Assembly: GCA_964639295.1 (NCBI GenBank)
Contig: CAZXDT010000002.1
Location: 2,609 to 66,608 of the forward strand
Reading direction: 5' to 3'
DNA: 64,000 nt
DNA from: an uncultured Candidatus Saccharibacteria bacterium
Lineage (GTDB): Bacteria; Patescibacteriota; Saccharimonadia; Saccharimonadales; JALRHH01
The notes under the pieces: model-generated
Told to the model about the DNA's origin: nothing
Seen by the model: only the letters and a program-made list of their open reading frames with translations
The model's database searches: none
In this document: positions 7,136 to 37,629 of the stretch, in pieces
Position numbering within the stretch: position 1 is the stretch's first letter
How the letters are laid out: the number at the start of each line of letters is the position of its first letter
Program-made: the position numbers and the translations under genes

Positions 7136-8266
7136 CTATTCCCAACGGAAGACACGGAAGGCTATGGCGTAGATAACGATCATCCAAACAGCCATAAAAC
7201 CAAGCTGTGCACCAATATCAATCAGATGCTTGCCCTCGGTAGTGAGCAAACGTATGCCATCAATCACAGGCGTCAGTGGCAAGAAGGCAGATACATGCTG
7301 CAGCCACTCTGGCATCAAAAAGCGTGGGAAGAAGGTTCCAGACAAGAACATCATTGGGAAGACAATTAGGTTAGCCAGTGGTGCAGCCTGTCGTTCATTG
7401 CTCGCCCAACCACCAATTGAAAGTCCAATGCCTAAGATCATGAAGATACCCAGCACTATGAAGGCAATTATCTCTAAATAATTCCCTGTCACATGAAGGT
7501 CAAAAGCGGCTATGGCTACCAAAAACATTATCGCCAATGAGAACACACCGATAATTGCCTGCGCCAACATGGTAGACAAGAAATACTGCCAAACCCGGAT
7601 TGGCGTAGTGTGTAAACGACGCAAAATACCTTGTTTTTTGAGTTCCGGGAAGACGTTGATTGGGCCAAAAATACCCAAACCAATAATCGAGAAGCCTAAA
7701 AGCCCAGAGAATGTGTAGTCAAAGTTGCTGAGGCTATTCTCGTTCAGAGATTTGCCCTGAACAGTTAATGGTACTTCGGTACTGACGTACTTACTGTTGA
7801 TGCCCTTGAACGTACCATCGAGCACAGTAGTCAGGGTCTGGCCGGCAGATTCGTTGTTCTTGGTATAGAAAACTTCTGCAGCACCAGTAGGCTTGCTATC
7901 CTTTACGTCACCAAAGCCGGCTGGCAATACAATCGCACCGTCTAGTTGGTTGCGGCCTAATTTTTCCTTGGCTTGTTCAAAGGTAGTTACATCTTTGGCT
8001 ACTTTGAATGTCTTGCTGTCTTTGAACTGGGTTGTAAGTTCACCCGCAAACTGGCTTTGAGACTGGTTGATAACGGCAACGTTGAATGATAGGTCGTTAC
8101 TGCCTTTGTTGAAGTTACCAAAGACAAATAGGAAGATTAGGGGGAATAACACACCAAAAAAGATAGCTAAGCGATCACGGAAAAAGCGCCGAGTGGTAAG
8201 CTTGACGAATACGCGGACAGTGTAGAGTTGCTGTTTGAGAGTAAGTGAAGATTTGCTCATGACCAT
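7136..8266 (-). CDS. ABC-2 type transporter permease with large extracytoplasmic loop
   Basis: An N-terminal TM helix is followed by a ~150-aa loop and then five C-terminal TM helices, a typical ABC2_membrane_3 architecture. Its partner ATPase gene lies upstream. Confidence 0.85.
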   Translation of the reverse strand: MVMSKSSLTLKQQLYTVRVFVKLTTRRFFRDRLAIFFGVLFPLIFLFVFGNFNKGSNDLSFNVAVINQSQSQFAGELTTQFKDSKTFKVAKDVTTFEQAKEKLGRNQLDGAIVLPAGFGDVKDSKPTGAAEVFYTKNNESAGQTLTTVLDGTFKGINSKYVSTEVPLTVQGKSLNENSLSNFDYTFSGLLGFSIIGLGIFGPINVFPELKKQGILRRLHTTPIRVWQYFLSTMLAQAIIGVFSLAIMFLVAIAAFDLHVTGNYLEIIAFIVLGIFMILGIGLSIGGWASNERQAAPLANLIVFPMMFLSGTFFPRFLMPEWLQHVSAFLPLTPVIDGIRLLTTEGKHLIDIGAQLGFMAVWMIVIYAIAFRVFRWE

Positions 8267-8294
8267 GACCTTTCAGATTTTAGTGCAGATTGTT

Positions 8295-8356
8295 CAAGAA
8301 TTGAGCATCGAAGCGCAGCGTACTTAGGTACGTGAGCATCGAAGCACAAATTATTG
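8295..8356 (+). repeat. Module-1-only diverged copy (C) of the structured element
   Basis: The outer stem is caagaatt / aattattg and the apical hairpin is gcgtac-ttag-gtacgt. The 5' arm matches copy B at 16 of 23 positions. An internal direct repeat gagcatcgaagc occurs twice. The copy lies between the ABC ATPase and permease genes. Confidence 0.6.
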
Positions 8357-8385
8357 GGCGATATGTGCAAAATGTGAGATGTCAT

Positions 8386-9144
8386 TTAGTCCTTTAGTGC
8401 CTTTCCGGTGAGGTCAATAAAGACATCCTCCAGATTTGCTTGTTCAACATGTTGCTCTTTCTTGAACCCTCGGGCTAGAAGGTCCTTTATGAGCTTCTTG
8501 GGGGTCTCTAGCGCGACGATCTTGCCACGATCCATCACAGCAATACGGTCGCAGAGCATCTCGGCCTCATCCATGTAGTGTGTGGTTAGAATGACTGTAA
8601 CCCCCTTCTTCTGGATGTCACGAATGAGATCCCAGAGGTTACGACGAGCCTGAGGATCAAGACCAGTAGTTGGCTCATCCAGGAAGAAAACCTTAGGGTT
8701 GTGGACTAATGCCGTTGCGATGCTTAAACGCTGACGCTGGCCCCCAGAGAGGTTTTCTGGGTAGGCGTCTGCTTTCTCGCCTAGATTAACGTCGTCCAGG
8801 AATGCTTTCGGATTTACTCGTTCACCGTAGGTTGCAGAGAACATTTCGATGATTTCTGTCAGTTTTTGCTTATCCTGAAAGGCTGGTGACTGCGGCTGGA
8901 CACCAATGATACGACGAATCGCCCATGGGTCTTCGTGGACATTAATACCATCAATTATTGCGGTACCACCGTCGATTGGTCGCATACCCTCGATCATTTC
9001 AAGTGTAGTCGTCTTGCCTGCGCCATTAGGGCCCAGAATTCCAAATACCTCACCTTTTTTGACCTCGAATGATATACCATCAACAACATTGCGGTCGCCA
9101 TATGTTTTTACTAAATTGTGTACTTTGAGAATTGTTTCTGCCAT
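8386..9144 (-). CDS. ABC transporter ATP-binding protein
   Basis: Walker A GPNGAGKTT, signature LSGGQRQRL and Walker B FFLDEP are present. Confidence 0.92.
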   Translation of the reverse strand: MAETILKVHNLVKTYGDRNVVDGISFEVKKGEVFGILGPNGAGKTTTLEMIEGMRPIDGGTAIIDGINVHEDPWAIRRIIGVQPQSPAFQDKQKLTEIIEMFSATYGERVNPKAFLDDVNLGEKADAYPENLSGGQRQRLSIATALVHNPKVFFLDEPTTGLDPQARRNLWDLIRDIQKKGVTVILTTHYMDEAEMLCDRIAVMDRGKIVALETPKKLIKDLLARGFKKEQHVEQANLEDVFIDLTGKALKD

Positions 9145-10992: not shown

Positions 10993-11012
10993 CACACACA
11001 TCGTGAGTTCAG

Positions 11013-11038
11013 AAAAACCCCGCATCAGCGGGGTTTTT
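11013..11038 (+). terminator. Rho-independent terminator (A-tract upstream, so possibly bidirectional)
   Basis: The sequence is aaaaa-ccccgc-atca-gcgggg-ttttt, 20 nt after the stop of gene 10339-10992. Confidence 0.85.
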
Positions 11039-11063
11039 CGTTTAGTAAAGATCGCTTTTATGC

Positions 11064-11120
11064 ACCACACCAGACAGTGGGTTGCGAGCTCCGCTCGTAA
11101 GTAGGATGGTTGGTGTGGTG
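11064..11120 (+). repeat. Module-2-only copy (D) of the structured element
   Basis: A perfect 10-bp outer stem (caccacacca / tggtgtggtg) encloses gggttgcgagctccgctcgtaag, which is homologous to module 2 of copies A and B. Confidence 0.7.
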
Positions 11121-11127
11121 TGCCTGT

Positions 11128-18958: not shown

Positions 18959-18980
18959 CAGTTTATTAGCTCCTTATTGC

Positions 18981-19068
18981 TTAAGTACATTTTACCATAA
19001 GCAAGTAACGGAGTAATTTGAAAATATATTTCCAAATTATGAGTAACGCCGCTTGTATTTTTATAAGC
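18981..19068 (-). promoter_or_regulatory. Promoter/leader module upstream of the secreted coiled-coil protein gene (copy 2)
   Basis: The minus strand reads gcttataaaaatacaagcggcgttactcataatttgg...aattactccgttacttgcttatggta. Order, orientation and spacing match the copy at 14341-14431. Confidence 0.6.
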
Positions 19069-19076
19069 GAAAACTA

Positions 19077-19880
19077 CTAAAGACTGAGTAAGTCGCCCTT
19101 CCGTTGCACTAAGCTTTCATGTACTAAATCATCGATTACGGGAACAAGTCGTTCATCTGTAATGTGTGTTTGTAGCTCTTTGAGGGACAGTGTGCCAGAA
19201 GTGAGTAAGCGTATCACCTTGCCTCTGATTTCACGTTTTGAACCTTTAAATGTGGATTGCTTAGCATAGTGCTTACTATTGCGGGCCGTGTTGCCAACAG
19301 ATGTTTTCAGAAGCACGCCGTAATCCATCAGTGCCCAATACCATTCCCGAGGTTGCTCTTGGTCAAGTGTAGCTTCGATGATCGGAATAAGTTCTTTATC
19401 ACTAACATCCGTGCGATCAGCAAAGAAATGGTGAATATAGACTGTTCGTATATTGGTTTCTACAAACACTACAGGTTTGTTGTAGGCATACACCATGATC
19501 GCCCCTGCAGTATTCACACCAATCCCAGGGAGTCTTACTAGTTGATCCGTGGCTTCTGGAAAGCCACCACTAAGCTCCTTCGCAGCTTGCCAGAGAAACT
19601 TAGCCCGTCTGTTGTATCCAAGCCCACTCCATTCCTCCAAGACATCGGCGAGCGGGGCTTTAGCTAGGACGCTCACGTTTGGAAATCGCTTAATGAAGCT
19701 CAGATATTTTGGGATAACACGTGCGGCTTGAGTTTGTTGCAACATAATCTCACTCACCATGATTTTATACGGATCAAAACTGCTGTCTGGTTCAGCGTCC
19801 CGCCACGGCAAATCCCTCCCAAAATCCAGGTAATAATCCCAAACTATCTGTCTGAAGTCCTGCTTCTGCTGCTCATCCAT
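19077..19880 (-). CDS. mutY: A/G-specific adenine glycosylase-like (MutY/HhH-GPD family), no Fe-S Cys motif seen
   Basis: MVSEIMLQQTQAARVIPKY and the HhH segment LPGIGVNTAGAIMVYAY are present. I chose the start at MDEQQKQDF (19880), which avoids overlap with the upstream gene. Confidence 0.8.
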   Translation of the reverse strand: MDEQQKQDFRQIVWDYYLDFGRDLPWRDAEPDSSFDPYKIMVSEIMLQQTQAARVIPKYLSFIKRFPNVSVLAKAPLADVLEEWSGLGYNRRAKFLWQAAKELSGGFPEATDQLVRLPGIGVNTAGAIMVYAYNKPVVFVETNIRTVYIHHFFADRTDVSDKELIPIIEATLDQEQPREWYWALMDYGVLLKTSVGNTARNSKHYAKQSTFKGSKREIRGKVIRLLTSGTLSLKELQTHITDERLVPVIDDLVHESLVQRKGDLLSL

Positions 19881-22708: not shown

Positions 22709-23338
22709 ATGACTTGGGAATCACGAATACAAGAAGCACAGCAACACTTGAGCAAGAATGATCCGATTATTGGTACGCTCATAGATCGTTTTGGTGATTG
22801 TAAGCTCGTGCCCCATACCGACTACTACGGTGAATTAGTTAGTGCCATAATTGGCCAGCAGCTATCAGAAAAGGCTGGCGCGACTATTTATAAACGCTTT
22901 CTTACCCTGTTTGATGGCAAGTTACCAACGCCAGAACAAATCATCACAACCGATACTGAAGCTATCCGTGGTATTGGTTGTAGTTATAGTAAGGCTGGAT
23001 ACATGAAGGATCTGGCCCAACATATTATTGACGGCCGACTGGATCTGGCGCATATAGCAACACTGCCCAATGATGTCGTGATCGAGCAGCTAGTGGCTGT
23101 TAAGGGCATTGGTGAATGGTCAGCACATATGTTTATGATGTTCTGTCTTGGTCGCTTGGACATCTTACCAACTGGCGACTTAGGAATACGTAAAGGTATG
23201 GTCTTGAATTACGGATTGCCAGAATTACCCAAACCAGCTGCCATGCACGAAGTCGCCCTCACCCACCACTGGGCACCCTACCAAACCGTAGCATCCTGGT
23301 ACCTCTGGCAAAGCCTCGACAACCAACCCAAAGACTAA
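22709..23338 (+). CDS. DNA-3-methyladenine glycosylase II family (AlkA-like, HhH-GPD)
   Basis: The HhH segment LVAVKGIGEWSAHMF and the catalytic Asp context LPTGDLGIRKG are present. Confidence 0.85.
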   Translation: MTWESRIQEAQQHLSKNDPIIGTLIDRFGDCKLVPHTDYYGELVSAIIGQQLSEKAGATIYKRFLTLFDGKLPTPEQIITTDTEAIRGIGCSYSKAGYMKDLAQHIIDGRLDLAHIATLPNDVVIEQLVAVKGIGEWSAHMFMMFCLGRLDILPTGDLGIRKGMVLNYGLPELPKPAAMHEVALTHHWAPYQTVASWYLWQSLDNQPKD

Positions 23339-23355
23339 ACTCCAGACCTGCTTTA

Positions 23356-23518
23356 GGCCGTTGTACTTGAGTGTCAGGTGCAATTTCTCTTCGAGAAACG
23401 GACCGAGCCGTACATGTGGTACGGTGAAGGGAGTATCGCAGAAGAAAATTGTGCCTGGCACCAAGAAGTCAGCGGGTCGTGAGCTCCGCTCATGAGCAGG
23501 CTGACTGGTACAGTGGCC
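23356..23518 (+). repeat. Bipartite structured element, copy A (module 1 at 23381-23451, module 2 at 23468-23505, 11-bp closing stem with two G-U pairs)
   Basis: ggccgttgtac (23356-23366) pairs with gtacagtggcc (23508-23518). The interior is homologous to copy B, with compensatory changes in three stems. Confidence 0.8.
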
Positions 23519-25422
23519 TAAAGGCCGCCGTAGCCGCCACCATAGCCGTTGAATGTTGTATTCGGTTTGTGATAATCCGTAACCTTCAAAGGAACCCCAG
23601 TAGCCTTCTGGTTCTTAGTATCTAGAAGCCCGGAGACTCCCATAATGTAGAGCTCACTTGAATTCTTTGAAACTAGCAGGTAGTTATCAGTGAACCAGCC
23701 GTAGACTGTGTAATCACTTAATTCTGCAACTGTTTTGCCGTTATCACCCTCGTTATCACCGACAAATAATGTATTTTTGCCGTCACGTGGCTCGGCCCAG
23801 AAAGTCTGCTTGTTAGATGGATCGTAGAGATATGTTGGGTAGAAGCCATAGAACTGACCGCTCAGATCTCCCTTGGTTTGCACTGCACCATTTTCTACTT
23901 CATAGAAATCAGAGCCACCAAGATTACCATAAACTCGGTAGTAGACTTCACGTGGTTTGTAGAGCTTGGATTCAATACTTGAGACTTTGTTAGCCTCAAA
24001 GCTCTTTAATGTTTTCTTGTCCTGGCCATTTACCTTCACTGTATAAATACCTGATTGTTTGCCAGCTAGGTAGCTGCCATCTGCTGTGTAAATACCTGCG
24101 TTCCAGGTCTTGGCGTAATTAACCGTATCCCCCACAAGAATCGGGCTACTAAAGTACTCTGATTTGTAGTCGGTCCCTGTGTACGAACCAACGCCACTGC
24201 CTTCGCCGGCGGTGTTATCGAGCACGTTCAACTTGTTAGTTTCGGCATCAAAGCTCTTAATACTGTACTTGTTTGGTTGCCAGAACTGTACCTTGTCACG
24301 CTGAACCAGATAGACAAATGTATGTCCACTCCAACCAGTCATCGTAAAGCTTGCATCGCCTTCATCCATGGTGGTTAGTTTGTCGCCTTTCGTCGTGTCG
24401 ATCAGATACAACGAAGCCGGCTTAGCTGCGCTGGCACGCTTGCTCTTAAGTGCCAAATACTTCCAGTCTTGGGATGCTAGCAAAACAGTGTCGCCATCAT
24501 CCTCACTACCCGTTGCAGCGAGCACCGTTTCAGCATTAGTGCCGTCAAGATTTGACTTCATGACGTTGATTTTCCCAGTACGCTTAGACAAGAAGTAAAC
24601 TTTGCCAGCAGGAGTAATAGACAGGTTGTTTTCTGCAACAACTGTTTCTGATTCTGTAACTTTAACCTTTGCAGTTTGTTTGTTAAATCCGTCCTTGGTA
24701 ATAGTCGCATCTTGGGTGTCTTGATCTGCTGGCAACACTATGACTGCTTCACCATTATCTCCAGTCTTTACTTCTGTCCCGGCTGCGCTAACTTGTGCAT
24801 CTTTAACGCCATTGCCATCGATCTTGTTGCTTACCCTCACGGTAACCTGACGGCCTGTGGCATCCAACTTGAGCGTAGCTTGACCACCACTCAGCGATAC
24901 AAGCACTGATGAACTGGTGTCCTTATAGTATTTTTTTGTAGCCTTGAGCTGGTATTTACCAACTGATACCTTATTGAAGGTAACGCTGCCATCCTGGCCA
25001 GTTTTGGCCGTTTTCCCACCGATCACCAAATCTACACTACTAATTGGCTTGTTAGTTTTGGCATCAATGACAGTGACCGAGAAGTTCTTTTTAATAACCA
25101 GACCGAGAACTGGGTATCTAGTGGCAGGAATTGCGCCAACGATCAGTAGGAGCGCAATGATAGTTGCTGGAATACTAACTTTCTTGTGCTTAATATAAGC
25201 CGTTTTCCATTTTGCTAGCTTTTGTTTGAATCCAGATTTTGCCTGTGGTTCTGGAACTTGTTCAGGTTCCACATCACTCTGAGGCTCTTCGTAACTTGTC
25301 TCTTCTTCTGGTTCTGGGGTTGTTACTTTATCGGGTTGTTCTACTTCTTCAACACTATTCGATGGTACGAGTGGCGCGGTTTTCGCCTCGTCATCATCAC
25401 GCTTCGGGTTCTCTAAATCCAT
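23518..25422 (-). CDS. Single-TM surface protein: acidic N-terminal tail, Ig-like domains, TolB-like beta-propeller (paralog of 19897-22176)
   Basis: AAGGGAG lies upstream of the ATG. The TM helix is IPATIIALLLIVGAIPA. PD40-like motifs include KVYFLSKRTGKINVMKSNLDGTNAE and EPRDGKNTLFVGD. The C-terminus is Gly/Tyr-rich (GYGGGYGGL). Confidence 0.8.
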   Translation of the reverse strand: MDLENPKRDDDEAKTAPLVPSNSVEEVEQPDKVTTPEPEEETSYEEPQSDVEPEQVPEPQAKSGFKQKLAKWKTAYIKHKKVSIPATIIALLLIVGAIPATRYPVLGLVIKKNFSVTVIDAKTNKPISSVDLVIGGKTAKTGQDGSVTFNKVSVGKYQLKATKKYYKDTSSSVLVSLSGGQATLKLDATGRQVTVRVSNKIDGNGVKDAQVSAAGTEVKTGDNGEAVIVLPADQDTQDATITKDGFNKQTAKVKVTESETVVAENNLSITPAGKVYFLSKRTGKINVMKSNLDGTNAETVLAATGSEDDGDTVLLASQDWKYLALKSKRASAAKPASLYLIDTTKGDKLTTMDEGDASFTMTGWSGHTFVYLVQRDKVQFWQPNKYSIKSFDAETNKLNVLDNTAGEGSGVGSYTGTDYKSEYFSSPILVGDTVNYAKTWNAGIYTADGSYLAGKQSGIYTVKVNGQDKKTLKSFEANKVSSIESKLYKPREVYYRVYGNLGGSDFYEVENGAVQTKGDLSGQFYGFYPTYLYDPSNKQTFWAEPRDGKNTLFVGDNEGDNGKTVAELSDYTVYGWFTDNYLLVSKNSSELYIMGVSGLLDTKNQKATGVPLKVTDYHKPNTTFNGYGGGYGGL

Positions 25423-31757: not shown

Positions 31758-31837
31758 GACTCAATACTAGTCGAGTGTGCCAAGTTTTGAAAGAGGTTGG
31801 GAATCCTTTACAATGGACAAGATAAAAGAGAGGGAAT

Positions 31838-32482
31838 ATGAAATCACGTTTTAGTCTTATTTTAATCGCCTGTGCAGTATTGTTTTTCGGCATTTTATTC
31901 GTTACCAAAAAAGATGCTAAGTCACCATCAGGTGGCAGTAATTCTAGTCAACCAAGTAACCATGTCAGGGGTGAAGGTAAAAGTGGCGTAACACTCACTG
32001 AGTACGGGGACTTCCAATGCCCGGCTTGTGGCGCTTACTATCCGGTTGTTGAGCAAGTCTACGAGAAGTATCACGACCAGATCACCTTCCAATTCCGTAA
32101 CTTCCCACTTCGTCAGATTCACCAGCATGCCATGGTTGCCCACCGTGCAGCTGCTGCTGCAGACAAGCAAGGTAAATTCTGGGATATGTACAACATGCTC
32201 TACAAGAATCAAGATAGCTGGACTAACCAAAGTGACCCAACAACAATCTTCCGTGGTTTTGCGGAGAGCTTAGGGCTTAACATGACTCAGTATGATACTG
32301 ATTTCAAGAGCGAAGCAGTCAACGACATCATCAATGCAGATATTGCCGAGGGTCAGAAGCTCGGTATTAGCGGTACTCCAACATTTGTCATCGATGGCAA
32401 GAAGATCGAGAACCCCAAAGATGCAGATGCCTTCAATAAAATCATTGAGGACGCCATCAAGGCCAAAACCCAAAACAACTAA
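31838..32482 (+). CDS. DsbA-family thiol:disulfide oxidoreductase (membrane-anchored/secreted)
   Basis: The N-terminus is hydrophobic. The active site reads EYGDFQCPACGAY (CPAC). Confidence 0.88.
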   Translation: MKSRFSLILIACAVLFFGILFVTKKDAKSPSGGSNSSQPSNHVRGEGKSGVTLTEYGDFQCPACGAYYPVVEQVYEKYHDQITFQFRNFPLRQIHQHAMVAHRAAAAADKQGKFWDMYNMLYKNQDSWTNQSDPTTIFRGFAESLGLNMTQYDTDFKSEAVNDIINADIAEGQKLGISGTPTFVIDGKKIENPKDADAFNKIIEDAIKAKTQNN

Positions 32483-32492
32483 TAGTTAGCTA

Positions 32493-32662
32493 CTAATCGT
32501 TTCGCACTTAAGCTCCAGATTCAATTTCTCCTTGAGAAACGGACCGAGCCGTACCTAAGTACGGTGAAGGGAGTATCGGAGAGGAAAATTGGATATGGAG
32601 CCAAGAGGCCAGCGGGTCGCGAGCTCCGCTCGTGAGCAGGCTGGCTGGTGCGAAACGATTAG
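32493..32662 (+). repeat. Bipartite structured element, copy B (module 1 at 32522-32591, module 2 at 32608-32645, perfect 15-bp closing stem)
   Basis: ctaatcgtttcgcac (32493-32507) is the exact reverse complement of gtgcgaaacgattag (32648-32662). The interior aligns base-for-base with 23381-23510 at roughly 85% identity by eye. Confidence 0.8.
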
Positions 32663-32670
32663 AAAGTAAA

Positions 32671-32706
32671 AGGCCAGTCTGATGACTGGTCTTTCTTTTT
32701 GTTTTT
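32671..32706 (+). terminator. Rho-independent terminator directly after structured element copy B
   Basis: The hairpin aggccagtc-tgat-gactggtct is followed by ttctttttgttttt. Confidence 0.8.
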
Positions 32707-37428: not shown

Positions 37429-37629
37429 TGTAGAAACATACACACGCACTCTTGCTCGAGAGATTTTACAGCTGTATCGGACTTCTGGTTACCCAGTTTA
37501 CCGTTGCGGCACAGTACAGGATTTTCACCTGTTTCCAGCATTGTTTTGTTAACTGTTCGTAGTGTATCACGTGCACGGCACGCTAGCTGTAGTAGTATAC
37601 GCTACATTTAGTACGCTAGAGGTAGCGGA

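Follow-up and report, generated by a model that had tools for sequence, protein, structure and literature searches.

A structured, uncatalogued insertional repeat of Saccharibacteria found between genes and, in frame, within them

The window analysed in this study (the whole stretch of 64,000 nucleotides of Saccharibacteria DNA, an origin to which the proteins encoded nearby and all related loci also point) carries a HhH-GPD DNA glycosylase gene and a gene for a 634-aa protein that converge on each other. The spacer between them is entirely taken up by one copy, here called A, of a structured element, which begins 12 nt past the stop codon of the glycosylase gene. The features of the locus are as follows (L023 is one of the related loci described below):

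22709–23338, + strand: HhH-GPD DNA glycosylase gene, on the same strand as copy A
23351–23523, + strand: copy A, full element and the subject of this study (covariance model (CM) R1, 159.7 bits, E 5e-37)
23351–23367, + strand: 5′ arm of the closing stem P1, CTTTAGGCCGTTGTACT, within the inserted DNA and missing at the empty site L023
23368–23463, + strand: arm P2 ('module 1'), with a basal helix, variable helices and the apical hairpin 23407–23425
23467–23506, + strand: hairpin P3 ('module 2'), whose GCUNNGC tip is conserved
23507–23523, + strand: 3′ arm of P1, GGTACAGTGGCCTAAAG
23518–25422, − strand: gene for the 634-aa protein with a CarboxypepD_reg domain, convergent, its stop and last codon inside P1 of copy A

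The architecture of copy A is a three-way junction made up of the closing stem P1, a long arm, P2, whose internal loops are rich in GA, and the hairpin P3. The conserved loops GAGAAACGGACCGAG and GAAGGGAGUAUC are carried by P2. At its full length the closing helix has 17 bp (23351–23367 with 23507–23523), of which the outer 7–8 bp involve host sequence: CTAAAG(GC) at the outer end of the 3′ arm belongs to the gene 23518–25422 on the − strand, where it makes up the final codons together with the stop. Folding of the + strand of 23350–23525 gave a minimum free energy of −94.9 kcal/mol (z = −10.3; none of 200 shuffles was as stable), compared with −65.5 kcal/mol (z = −5.6) for the − strand.

One further complete member (copy B) and two reduced members (copies C and D) were identified in the window:

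31787–31814: promoter-like site
31838–32482, + strand: DsbA-like thioredoxin gene; copy B begins 10 nt past its stop codon
32493–32662, + strand: copy B, full element (CM 165.1 bits)
32493–32508/32647–32662 (P1, 16 bp), 32512–32601 (P2) and 32607–32646 (P3), + strand: helices of copy B
32669–32694, + strand: terminator-like hairpin with a T-run, immediately 3′ of copy B
8261–8391, + strand: copy C, reduced to the long hairpin resembling module 1
11062–11121, + strand: copy D, reduced to its own 11-bp closing stem and P3, with P2 deleted

Copy B is 85% identical to A across 129 nt and folds with −93.4 kcal/mol (z = −10.5). Since it lies between the stop codon of the dsbA-like gene and the terminator, it is inside the dsbA-like transcript and should be transcribed. 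Copy C is located between two minus-strand ABC-transporter genes, with arms that reach into their start and stop codons; with filters off, the CM gave a weak match at 8263–8427 (12.1 bits, E 0.42), and the fold is −51.0 kcal/mol (z −6.3) on the + strand vs. −33.4 kcal/mol on the − strand. Copy D shares 86% identity with B over 37 nt, was matched by the CM with filters off at 11010–11127 (18.8 bits, E 0.0097) and folds with −34.2 kcal/mol (z −3.7). All four members have the + orientation. Just 5′ of copy D, at 11014–11040 (+), there is a hairpin of canonical terminator type, AAAAACCCCGCATCAGCGGGGTTTTTC, which places D outside the transcript of the upstream gene unless there is read-through. A further stretch of the window, 18973–19135, scored 14.5 bits with the CM, but its fold has z = −1.7 and it was taken as a chance match.

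The first-pass annotation of this DNA had proposed, from the stem differences between copies, that the + strand is under selection at the RNA level. The differences cited could be confirmed in the sequence. One pair of the outer stem of module 1 is U-A in A and C-G in B; the lower stem of module 2 reads gTcagc/gctgAc in A and gCcagc/gctgGc in B, and its upper stem tcgTgagc/gctcAtga in A, tcgCgagc/gctcGtga in B and, as a third state, tTgcgagc/gctcgtAa in D (11082–11100). The third pair of this upper stem is G·U in all three copies (A, B, and D), the apical stem of module 1 (GCCGTAC/GTACGGT) is the same in A and B with loops of atgtg vs. ctaa, and the closing stem of A (ggccgttgtac/gtacagtggcc) contains two G·U pairs. 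The A/B changes are double-sided, or lead from G-C to G·U. The covariation test that had been put forward was strongly positive over many copies: in a 38-copy alignment from different genomes, fitted to the CM, 93.6% of paired cells form standard pairs (68.0% in shuffles, 32–42% with partners slid), and double-sided changes were seen in 38 of the 44 pairs, a count reached by 0 of 500 shuffles. Independent MAFFT/RNAalifold runs detected compensatory changes in 37 of 48 and 35 of 44 pairs. The totals of G·U and A·C are 150 and 20 (about 7:1), with an excess of G·U in all three helices (P1 22/6, P2 102/10, P3 26/4); the + strand is therefore the folding strand. These results support the view that structure rather than sequence is under selection, on the + strand and at the level of a single strand. 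To this extent the proposal held; its RNA-level part is not separable, from sequence alone, from folding as single-stranded DNA, and the folded species is probably RNA.

The distribution of the element was studied by scanning one degenerate pattern, derived from the P2 loops, against genome and metagenome collections. True copies accounted for 18 of 20 pattern matches in genomes and 13 of 20 in metagenomes, and the named matches all came from Saccharibacteria/Patescibacteria, those in the genome collection being MAGs. Each true copy, folded singly, gives the same three-way-junction architecture. Related loci with their flanking DNA, about 45 in all, are designated by L-numbers (L001, L017, and so on). 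A search of about 340 kb of this flanking DNA with the CM, built from 31 copies, revealed 9–11 additional copies, with up to three per 8 kb; the flanking DNA suggests a density of about one copy per 30 kb. Half-elements like C and D also occur elsewhere (e.g., L046:8263). The element proper comprises about 155 nt (the repeat about 170 bases). The short inner arms of its closing stem have the consensus TTCGCAC...GTGCGAA, and its core adopts the three-way junction on one strand. Apart from an AdoCbl-II (cobalamin) riboswitch aptamer at 37465–37552 (−; 38.9 bits vs. a gathering score of 36.5), no gathering-score match to Rfam 15 was obtained in the window, and at E ≤ 10 there was nothing for 23300–23560, the models of group I/II introns, of small ribozymes (hammerhead, twister, pistol, hatchet, HDV-like), and of 5S, 6S, and Y RNA-like RNAs included. 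The element had no match in phages or plasmids (blastn) or in viral contigs (pattern), and a phage or plasmid origin was ruled out on these grounds. No description of it was found in the literature searched for structured RNAs, MITEs, and palindromic repeats of Saccharibacteria/CPR. It is strongly supported that A and B are members of an uncatalogued, non-autonomous insertional repeat family of Saccharibacteria.

Several resemblances were considered and set aside. Those to 5S rRNA, the SRL, and domain 5 of group II introns are backed by no model match. A hammerhead or twister was judged by eye: the junction strands CUUGAG / GCCAAGA / UGG differ from the CUGANGA/GAA core, and CUUG pairs with CAAG at the base of P2, with covariation. 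The element is also represented in public protein clusters (P0241–P0259) of 45–85-aa 'hypothetical proteins' called on it, which appear to be its translations; one of these reads on into the 3′ part of udg and has for that reason been given the label uracil-DNA glycosylase. A peptide-profile search for further in-frame hosts returned 19 short ORFs only, and those examined were called on the element itself, plus two leading to the udg case.

Comparison of orthologous loci demonstrated that the element is an insertion rather than a gene resident at these sites. In L023 the HhH-GPD orthologue is followed by convergent stop codons only 2 nt apart, and the element is absent; L022 has a divergent copy at the same site. 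The junction of the SecA and M16 peptidase genes is occupied in L007 and empty in L048. The copies in L011 and L036 differ at 4 of about 140 nt in their cores, sit at different loci, and have outer arms that are different yet complementary. Landing sites are gene spacers, typically just past stop codons, and also protein genes, in sense orientation. No direct target duplication is visible in three empty/occupied pairs of diverged species (L023 vs. copy A; L048 vs. L017 at msrA; L048 vs. L007 at SecA–M16), in which short duplications could have been erased.

The closing stem is always long, with a median of 19 and a minimum of 11 long-range pairs (range 11 to about 20 bp). Only the inner 5–7 bp (TTCGCAC/GTGCGAA, semi-conserved) are common to the copies, and the outer 6–13 bp are locus-specific. 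In many copies the host DNA that follows the insertion supplies the 3′ arm, and the 5′ arm, inside the insert, is its reverse complement. In msrA the 3′ arm consists of the host codons TTT CGT ATC CTC CTG (F-R-I-L-L), homologous to SYEVLL of uninserted genes; in udg it consists of host codons for T-S-W-V-I-L, and in yjbR it is partly host sequence (G-D-W). The outer 3′ arm sequence of copy A is present at the empty site L023, from which the complementary CTTTAG is absent. It had been suggested in the first-pass annotation that the core might have inserted into pre-existing hairpins. There is no hairpin at the empty orthologous site L023, and in msrA, udg, and yjbR host coding sequence forms the 3′ arm while the 5′ arm is within the insertion; based on empty sites and protein alignments, a pre-existing hairpin as target is rejected. 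A host-derived 3′ arm is not universal, since in xth (L015) and in L022 this arm is apparently almost wholly within the insert.

The msrA copies of L017, L045, L046, and L047 have P1 arms CAGGAGGTACGAA/TTCGTATCCTCCTG, TACAAGGACTCAA/TTGAGTACCTTGTA, and so on. Nearly all of the stem has changed among them, by double substitutions, and the geometry (7 bp, a one-base bulge, and 6 bp) has been kept. Host residues have shifted with the stem (FRILL, FQVLL, LQVLL, and FEYLV vs. YEVLL in the uninserted L048). The conserved bulge speaks for a single old insertion with compensatory changes after it. In L011 and L036 locus-specific complementary arms are found on near-identical cores, which suggests that an inverted flank copy can arise quickly. 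We infer an origin of the 5′ arm by snap-back or template switching: at insertion or soon after it, an inverted copy of the 3′ flank would be synthesized on the folded element, and strand-specific selection on the transcript would then maintain P1, tolerating G·U but not A·C. In quasipalindrome template switching (Ripley model) one arm of an inverted repeat is copied onto the other and the palindrome is extended into the flank. This model would yield a 5′ arm identical to the reverse complement of the sequence flanking the element on its 3′ side; however, template switching is a mutational process rather than an element and gives perfect Watson-Crick arms on both strands, and thus it leaves the 7:1 excess of G·U over A·C unexplained. 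In two spacers the 3′ arm of P1 holds a likely Shine-Dalgarno sequence and start codon, that of the M16 peptidase (GGAGGCGGGTGTG, L007:6470–6490) and that of uppP (GTGATG, L011:7705–7722); P1 could mask translation initiation of the downstream gene at these loci.

Six independent host genes contain the element in sense and in frame: msrA, fpg, xth, udg (family 4), yjbR, and a methylase gene. In MsrA, query residues 3–64 correspond to residues 44–105 of the mouse enzyme and 117–209 to 106–202, the insert being exactly 52 aa. In xth (L015), ExoA residues 136 and 137 are contiguous around a 70-aa insert. At least 14 inserted MsrA orthologues were found, with more among the matches listed; in the 14 that were aligned (209–219 aa, down to about 60% identity) the frame is kept and indels are of whole codons, and orthologues without the insert have about 160 aa. 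Internally deleted MsrA inserts are still in frame (P0135, 181 aa; P0139, 198 aa). Stops in intragenic copies number 0 in the used frame and 1–8 in the other sense frames. Antisense frames are open more often than sense frames, yet all six independent intragenic copies are sense. Two frames are used (EKRTEPY...TVKGV or SNGPSRT...GEGS), which means that no particular peptide is conserved. In the AlphaFold model of MsrA, insert residues 71–106 have a pLDDT below 50, and the core has values of 80–96; the peptide EKRTEPYLNTVKGV lies in the inserted MsrA. Judging from the conservation of frame, the intragenic inserts are probably translated, as a disordered surface loop. Only in-frame, stop-free copies would persist within genes. 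Genes with an in-frame or adjacent copy (L002, L015, L049, L018, and 22709–23338 of the window) are often concerned with DNA repair or modification (fpg, xth, udg, HhH-GPD glycosylase, methylase); in this small sample the excess could be due to chance, to the tolerance of non-essential genes, or to a real bias.

The reading that best fits these data, to which we assign a rough probability of 0.55, is a mobile, transcribed, structured element similar to the Rickettsia palindromic elements (RPEs) and translated when in frame. It takes in the family with its fold and covariation, the strand asymmetry, the insertion polymorphism, the in-frame occupancy and the 3′ arm of host origin; an enzyme that moves the element is presumed, as is any benefit to the host. 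A point against it is that a purely selfish passenger should not show selection on structure in a vertically inherited copy, as is seen in msrA. RPEs were reportedly described by Ogata et al. in 2000. As far as two accounts of them extend, they are non-autonomous repeats of 105–150 bp, present in multiple copies in a bacterium with a reduced genome, with a transcript that forms a stable long stem and no known associated transposase; they occur between genes or fused in frame to conserved proteins, at sites that the protein fold can accommodate, and have conserved terminal inverted repeats of about 12 bp and one conserved encoded peptide (PMC10969869; PMC2229807). The Saccharibacteria element is likewise small and multi-copy, is found between genes and in frame at tolerant sites of conserved genes (where the insert is predicted to be disordered), and has no linked transposase. 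It differs from RPEs in its outer closing arms, which are copy-specific and partly host-derived, in the use of two frames, and in its fold, a three-way junction with strong covariation and G·U asymmetry. As RPEs belong to a different phylum, no sequence relationship is expected, and the comparison is one of behaviour. To behaviour of the RPE type it adds two unusual traits, the conserved three-way junction under strand-specific selection and the closing stem that is partly host sequence. Correia/NEMIS, ERIC, BOX, and RUP repeats are also multi-copy, of 100–200 bp, co-transcribed, strongly folded as RNA and sometimes carry ORFs (PMC2229807). The element resembles a MITE in being small, non-coding, multi-copy, and insertion-polymorphic. 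Bacterial MITEs have family-wide terminal inverted repeats and TA or other direct target duplications. Such repeats were not found across the copies of the element, which is therefore not a classical MITE.

The intergenic copies follow no simple rule of transcription or of replication. At least five of them (copy C of the window, L001, L006, L046:8263, and L047:5238) fold antisense to both flanking co-directional genes, which is awkward for a purely RNA-level role, and neighbouring copies lie on opposite strands within 0.3–5 kb in L011, L037, L012, L046, and L047, which contradicts a simple replication-strand rule. A different reading, which we consider unlikely, is that the element acts as single-stranded DNA. 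It would fold in the lagging-strand template or the non-template strand and there be acted on in trans by a DNA enzyme, of the HUH/Y1 or another type, by analogy with IS200/IS605 ends, REPINs, and integron attC sites, and G·T wobbles would explain the strand asymmetry. The operon-antisense copies still fold well, as is seen for copy C (−51 vs. −33 kcal/mol) and from the scores of L001, L006, and L047:5238 (103–150 bits), and the 3′ host junction is precise, with no direct target duplication seen. No transposase, reverse transcriptase, or other enzyme linked to the copies was found in the approximately 45 loci, and there were no split or ORF-containing copies among the CM matches that could represent a parent autonomous IS. 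One 204-aa Y1 (IS200/RAYT-like, HUH) transposase gene was detected on a Saccharibacteria contig (L047:12489–13103, −). It fits the single-stranded DNA reading, but it adjoins no copy and has no homologue in the window or the other loci; being confined to one locus, it was rejected as the mobilising enzyme. Against this reading are also the neighbours on opposite strands and the sense orientation of the intragenic copies, despite the more frequently open antisense frames. REPs, moreover, are extragenic and only 20–40 nt long (PMC3733652). The element shares strand-specific folds and precise junctions with REP/REPIN sequences and IS200/IS605 ends, which have no direct target duplication, and none is visible for the element in the three pairs of diverged species; unlike REP/REPIN sequences it is about 170 nt long, is found in frame in genes as well, has no linked RAYT (the lone Y1_Tnp gene is not beside a copy), and has ends that pair with each other and with the flank, so that it is not a member of the REP/REPIN-RAYT group. 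Integron attC sites possess R″/R′ core sites and a cassette context, and have no long conserved core. The element, with a conserved core of 130 nt, housekeeping neighbours (secA, valS, msrA), and intragenic copies, is not an attC site.

Many copies abut the stop codons of an upstream same-strand or convergent gene, copy B precedes a terminator, and P1 is always a long duplex of the kind cut by RNase III. Together with the maintenance of structure in vertically inherited copies, this could point to a cis-acting RNA of benefit to the host, such as a 3′-UTR stabiliser, a terminator or insulator of convergent genes, or an RNase III site, which would have spread owing to its usefulness, the intragenic copies being accidental. 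We regard such a function as improbable: a role at mRNA ends leaves the conserved GA-rich internal loops and junction sequences unexplained, as well as the six in-frame enzyme copies and the antisense copies, and the orthologous loci L023 and L048 manage well in its absence.

With modest probability, the pairing of the stem with the flank is the mark of a new mechanism of insertion. We give a rather small probability to a new RNA-based mobile element, in which the transcript would be copied back or reverse-spliced at sites paired with the 5′ arm, or in which insertion would inversely duplicate the target by snap-back. If this were true, the host-derived, co-varying P1 would take part in mobility or homing, and the GA-rich loops and junction would serve as the core of a ribozyme or as the binding site of an enzyme. 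If the inverted flank copy is made during insertion, integration would proceed in a way that is not known from bacterial repeats.

If the folded RNA were removed from the transcript, by self-splicing or by host enzymes, with P1 as the guide pairing that defines the site, both the host-level selection on the fold and the exclusive sense orientation in genes (6/6) would be accounted for. The exon-insert pairing co-varies in msrA, and in group I/II guide pairings (IGS-exon, EBS-IBS), too, the 5′ side of the insert pairs and co-varies with the adjacent exon. The apical hairpin GAGCCGUAY...RUACGGU, with its conserved G·U after 'AG', is presumably reminiscent of group II domain 5 and was counted on the same side. 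An intron-like nature is nevertheless very doubtful. Open frames were found in all hosts, with whole-codon indels in the 14 aligned MsrA orthologues, and an excised intron needs neither; the insert boundaries are at opposite ends of the 13-bp P1 and not side by side; and internally deleted in-frame inserts persist (P0135 and P0139). Unlike group I/II introns, the element has no Rfam match at E ≤ 10, is about 170 nt long, and pairs with the 3′ flank only, over up to 13 bp. With frame and absence of stops conserved in six host genes, it does not fit a self-splicing intron. Very doubtful, too, is a family of dispersed genes whose product, a small RNA or RNP scaffold acting in trans, would be cut from host transcripts at P1: the conserved internal loops, junction, and P3 tip do suggest protein binding or a tertiary fold, and in its length P1 is like the processing stems on either side of rRNAs, but processing would destroy the mRNAs of genes with internal copies, the 'conserved' loops vary in older copies (msrA, L022, L037:855), half-elements persist (C, D, L046:8263), and presence/absence polymorphism is typical of insertions and not of genes.

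The genomes of Saccharibacteria, like those of other Patescibacteria, are very small and densely packed. To our knowledge, almost no non-coding RNA or repeat biology has been described for the Patescibacteria. The element is abundant and uncatalogued, and its covariation signal is among the clearest obtainable. Conserved repair and redox enzymes (MsrA, Fpg, ExoIII, UDG) have been entered repeatedly without being broken. In public databases the element leads to spurious 'hypothetical proteins', and real proteins are 50–70 residues longer. P1 recruits host coding sequence, co-evolves with it and changes host amino acids, a case of nucleic-acid structure constraining protein sequence.

Two of the landing sites contain other sequences in related genomes. 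In two close relatives (L021:3631–3800 and L024:3640–3800) the convergent 634-aa gene is absent, and another non-coding sequence that is conserved, GCTTGACG...GGAGTACAGTGRATTTCATGATTCRGTG..., comes after the HhH-GPD gene; it ends in a terminator-like hairpin and may be another non-coding RNA. The SecA–M16 spacers of L046 (20105–20230) and L047 (17144–17278) hold other strongly folded sequences with no CM match; these may be very divergent copies or unrelated structured inserts at the same site.
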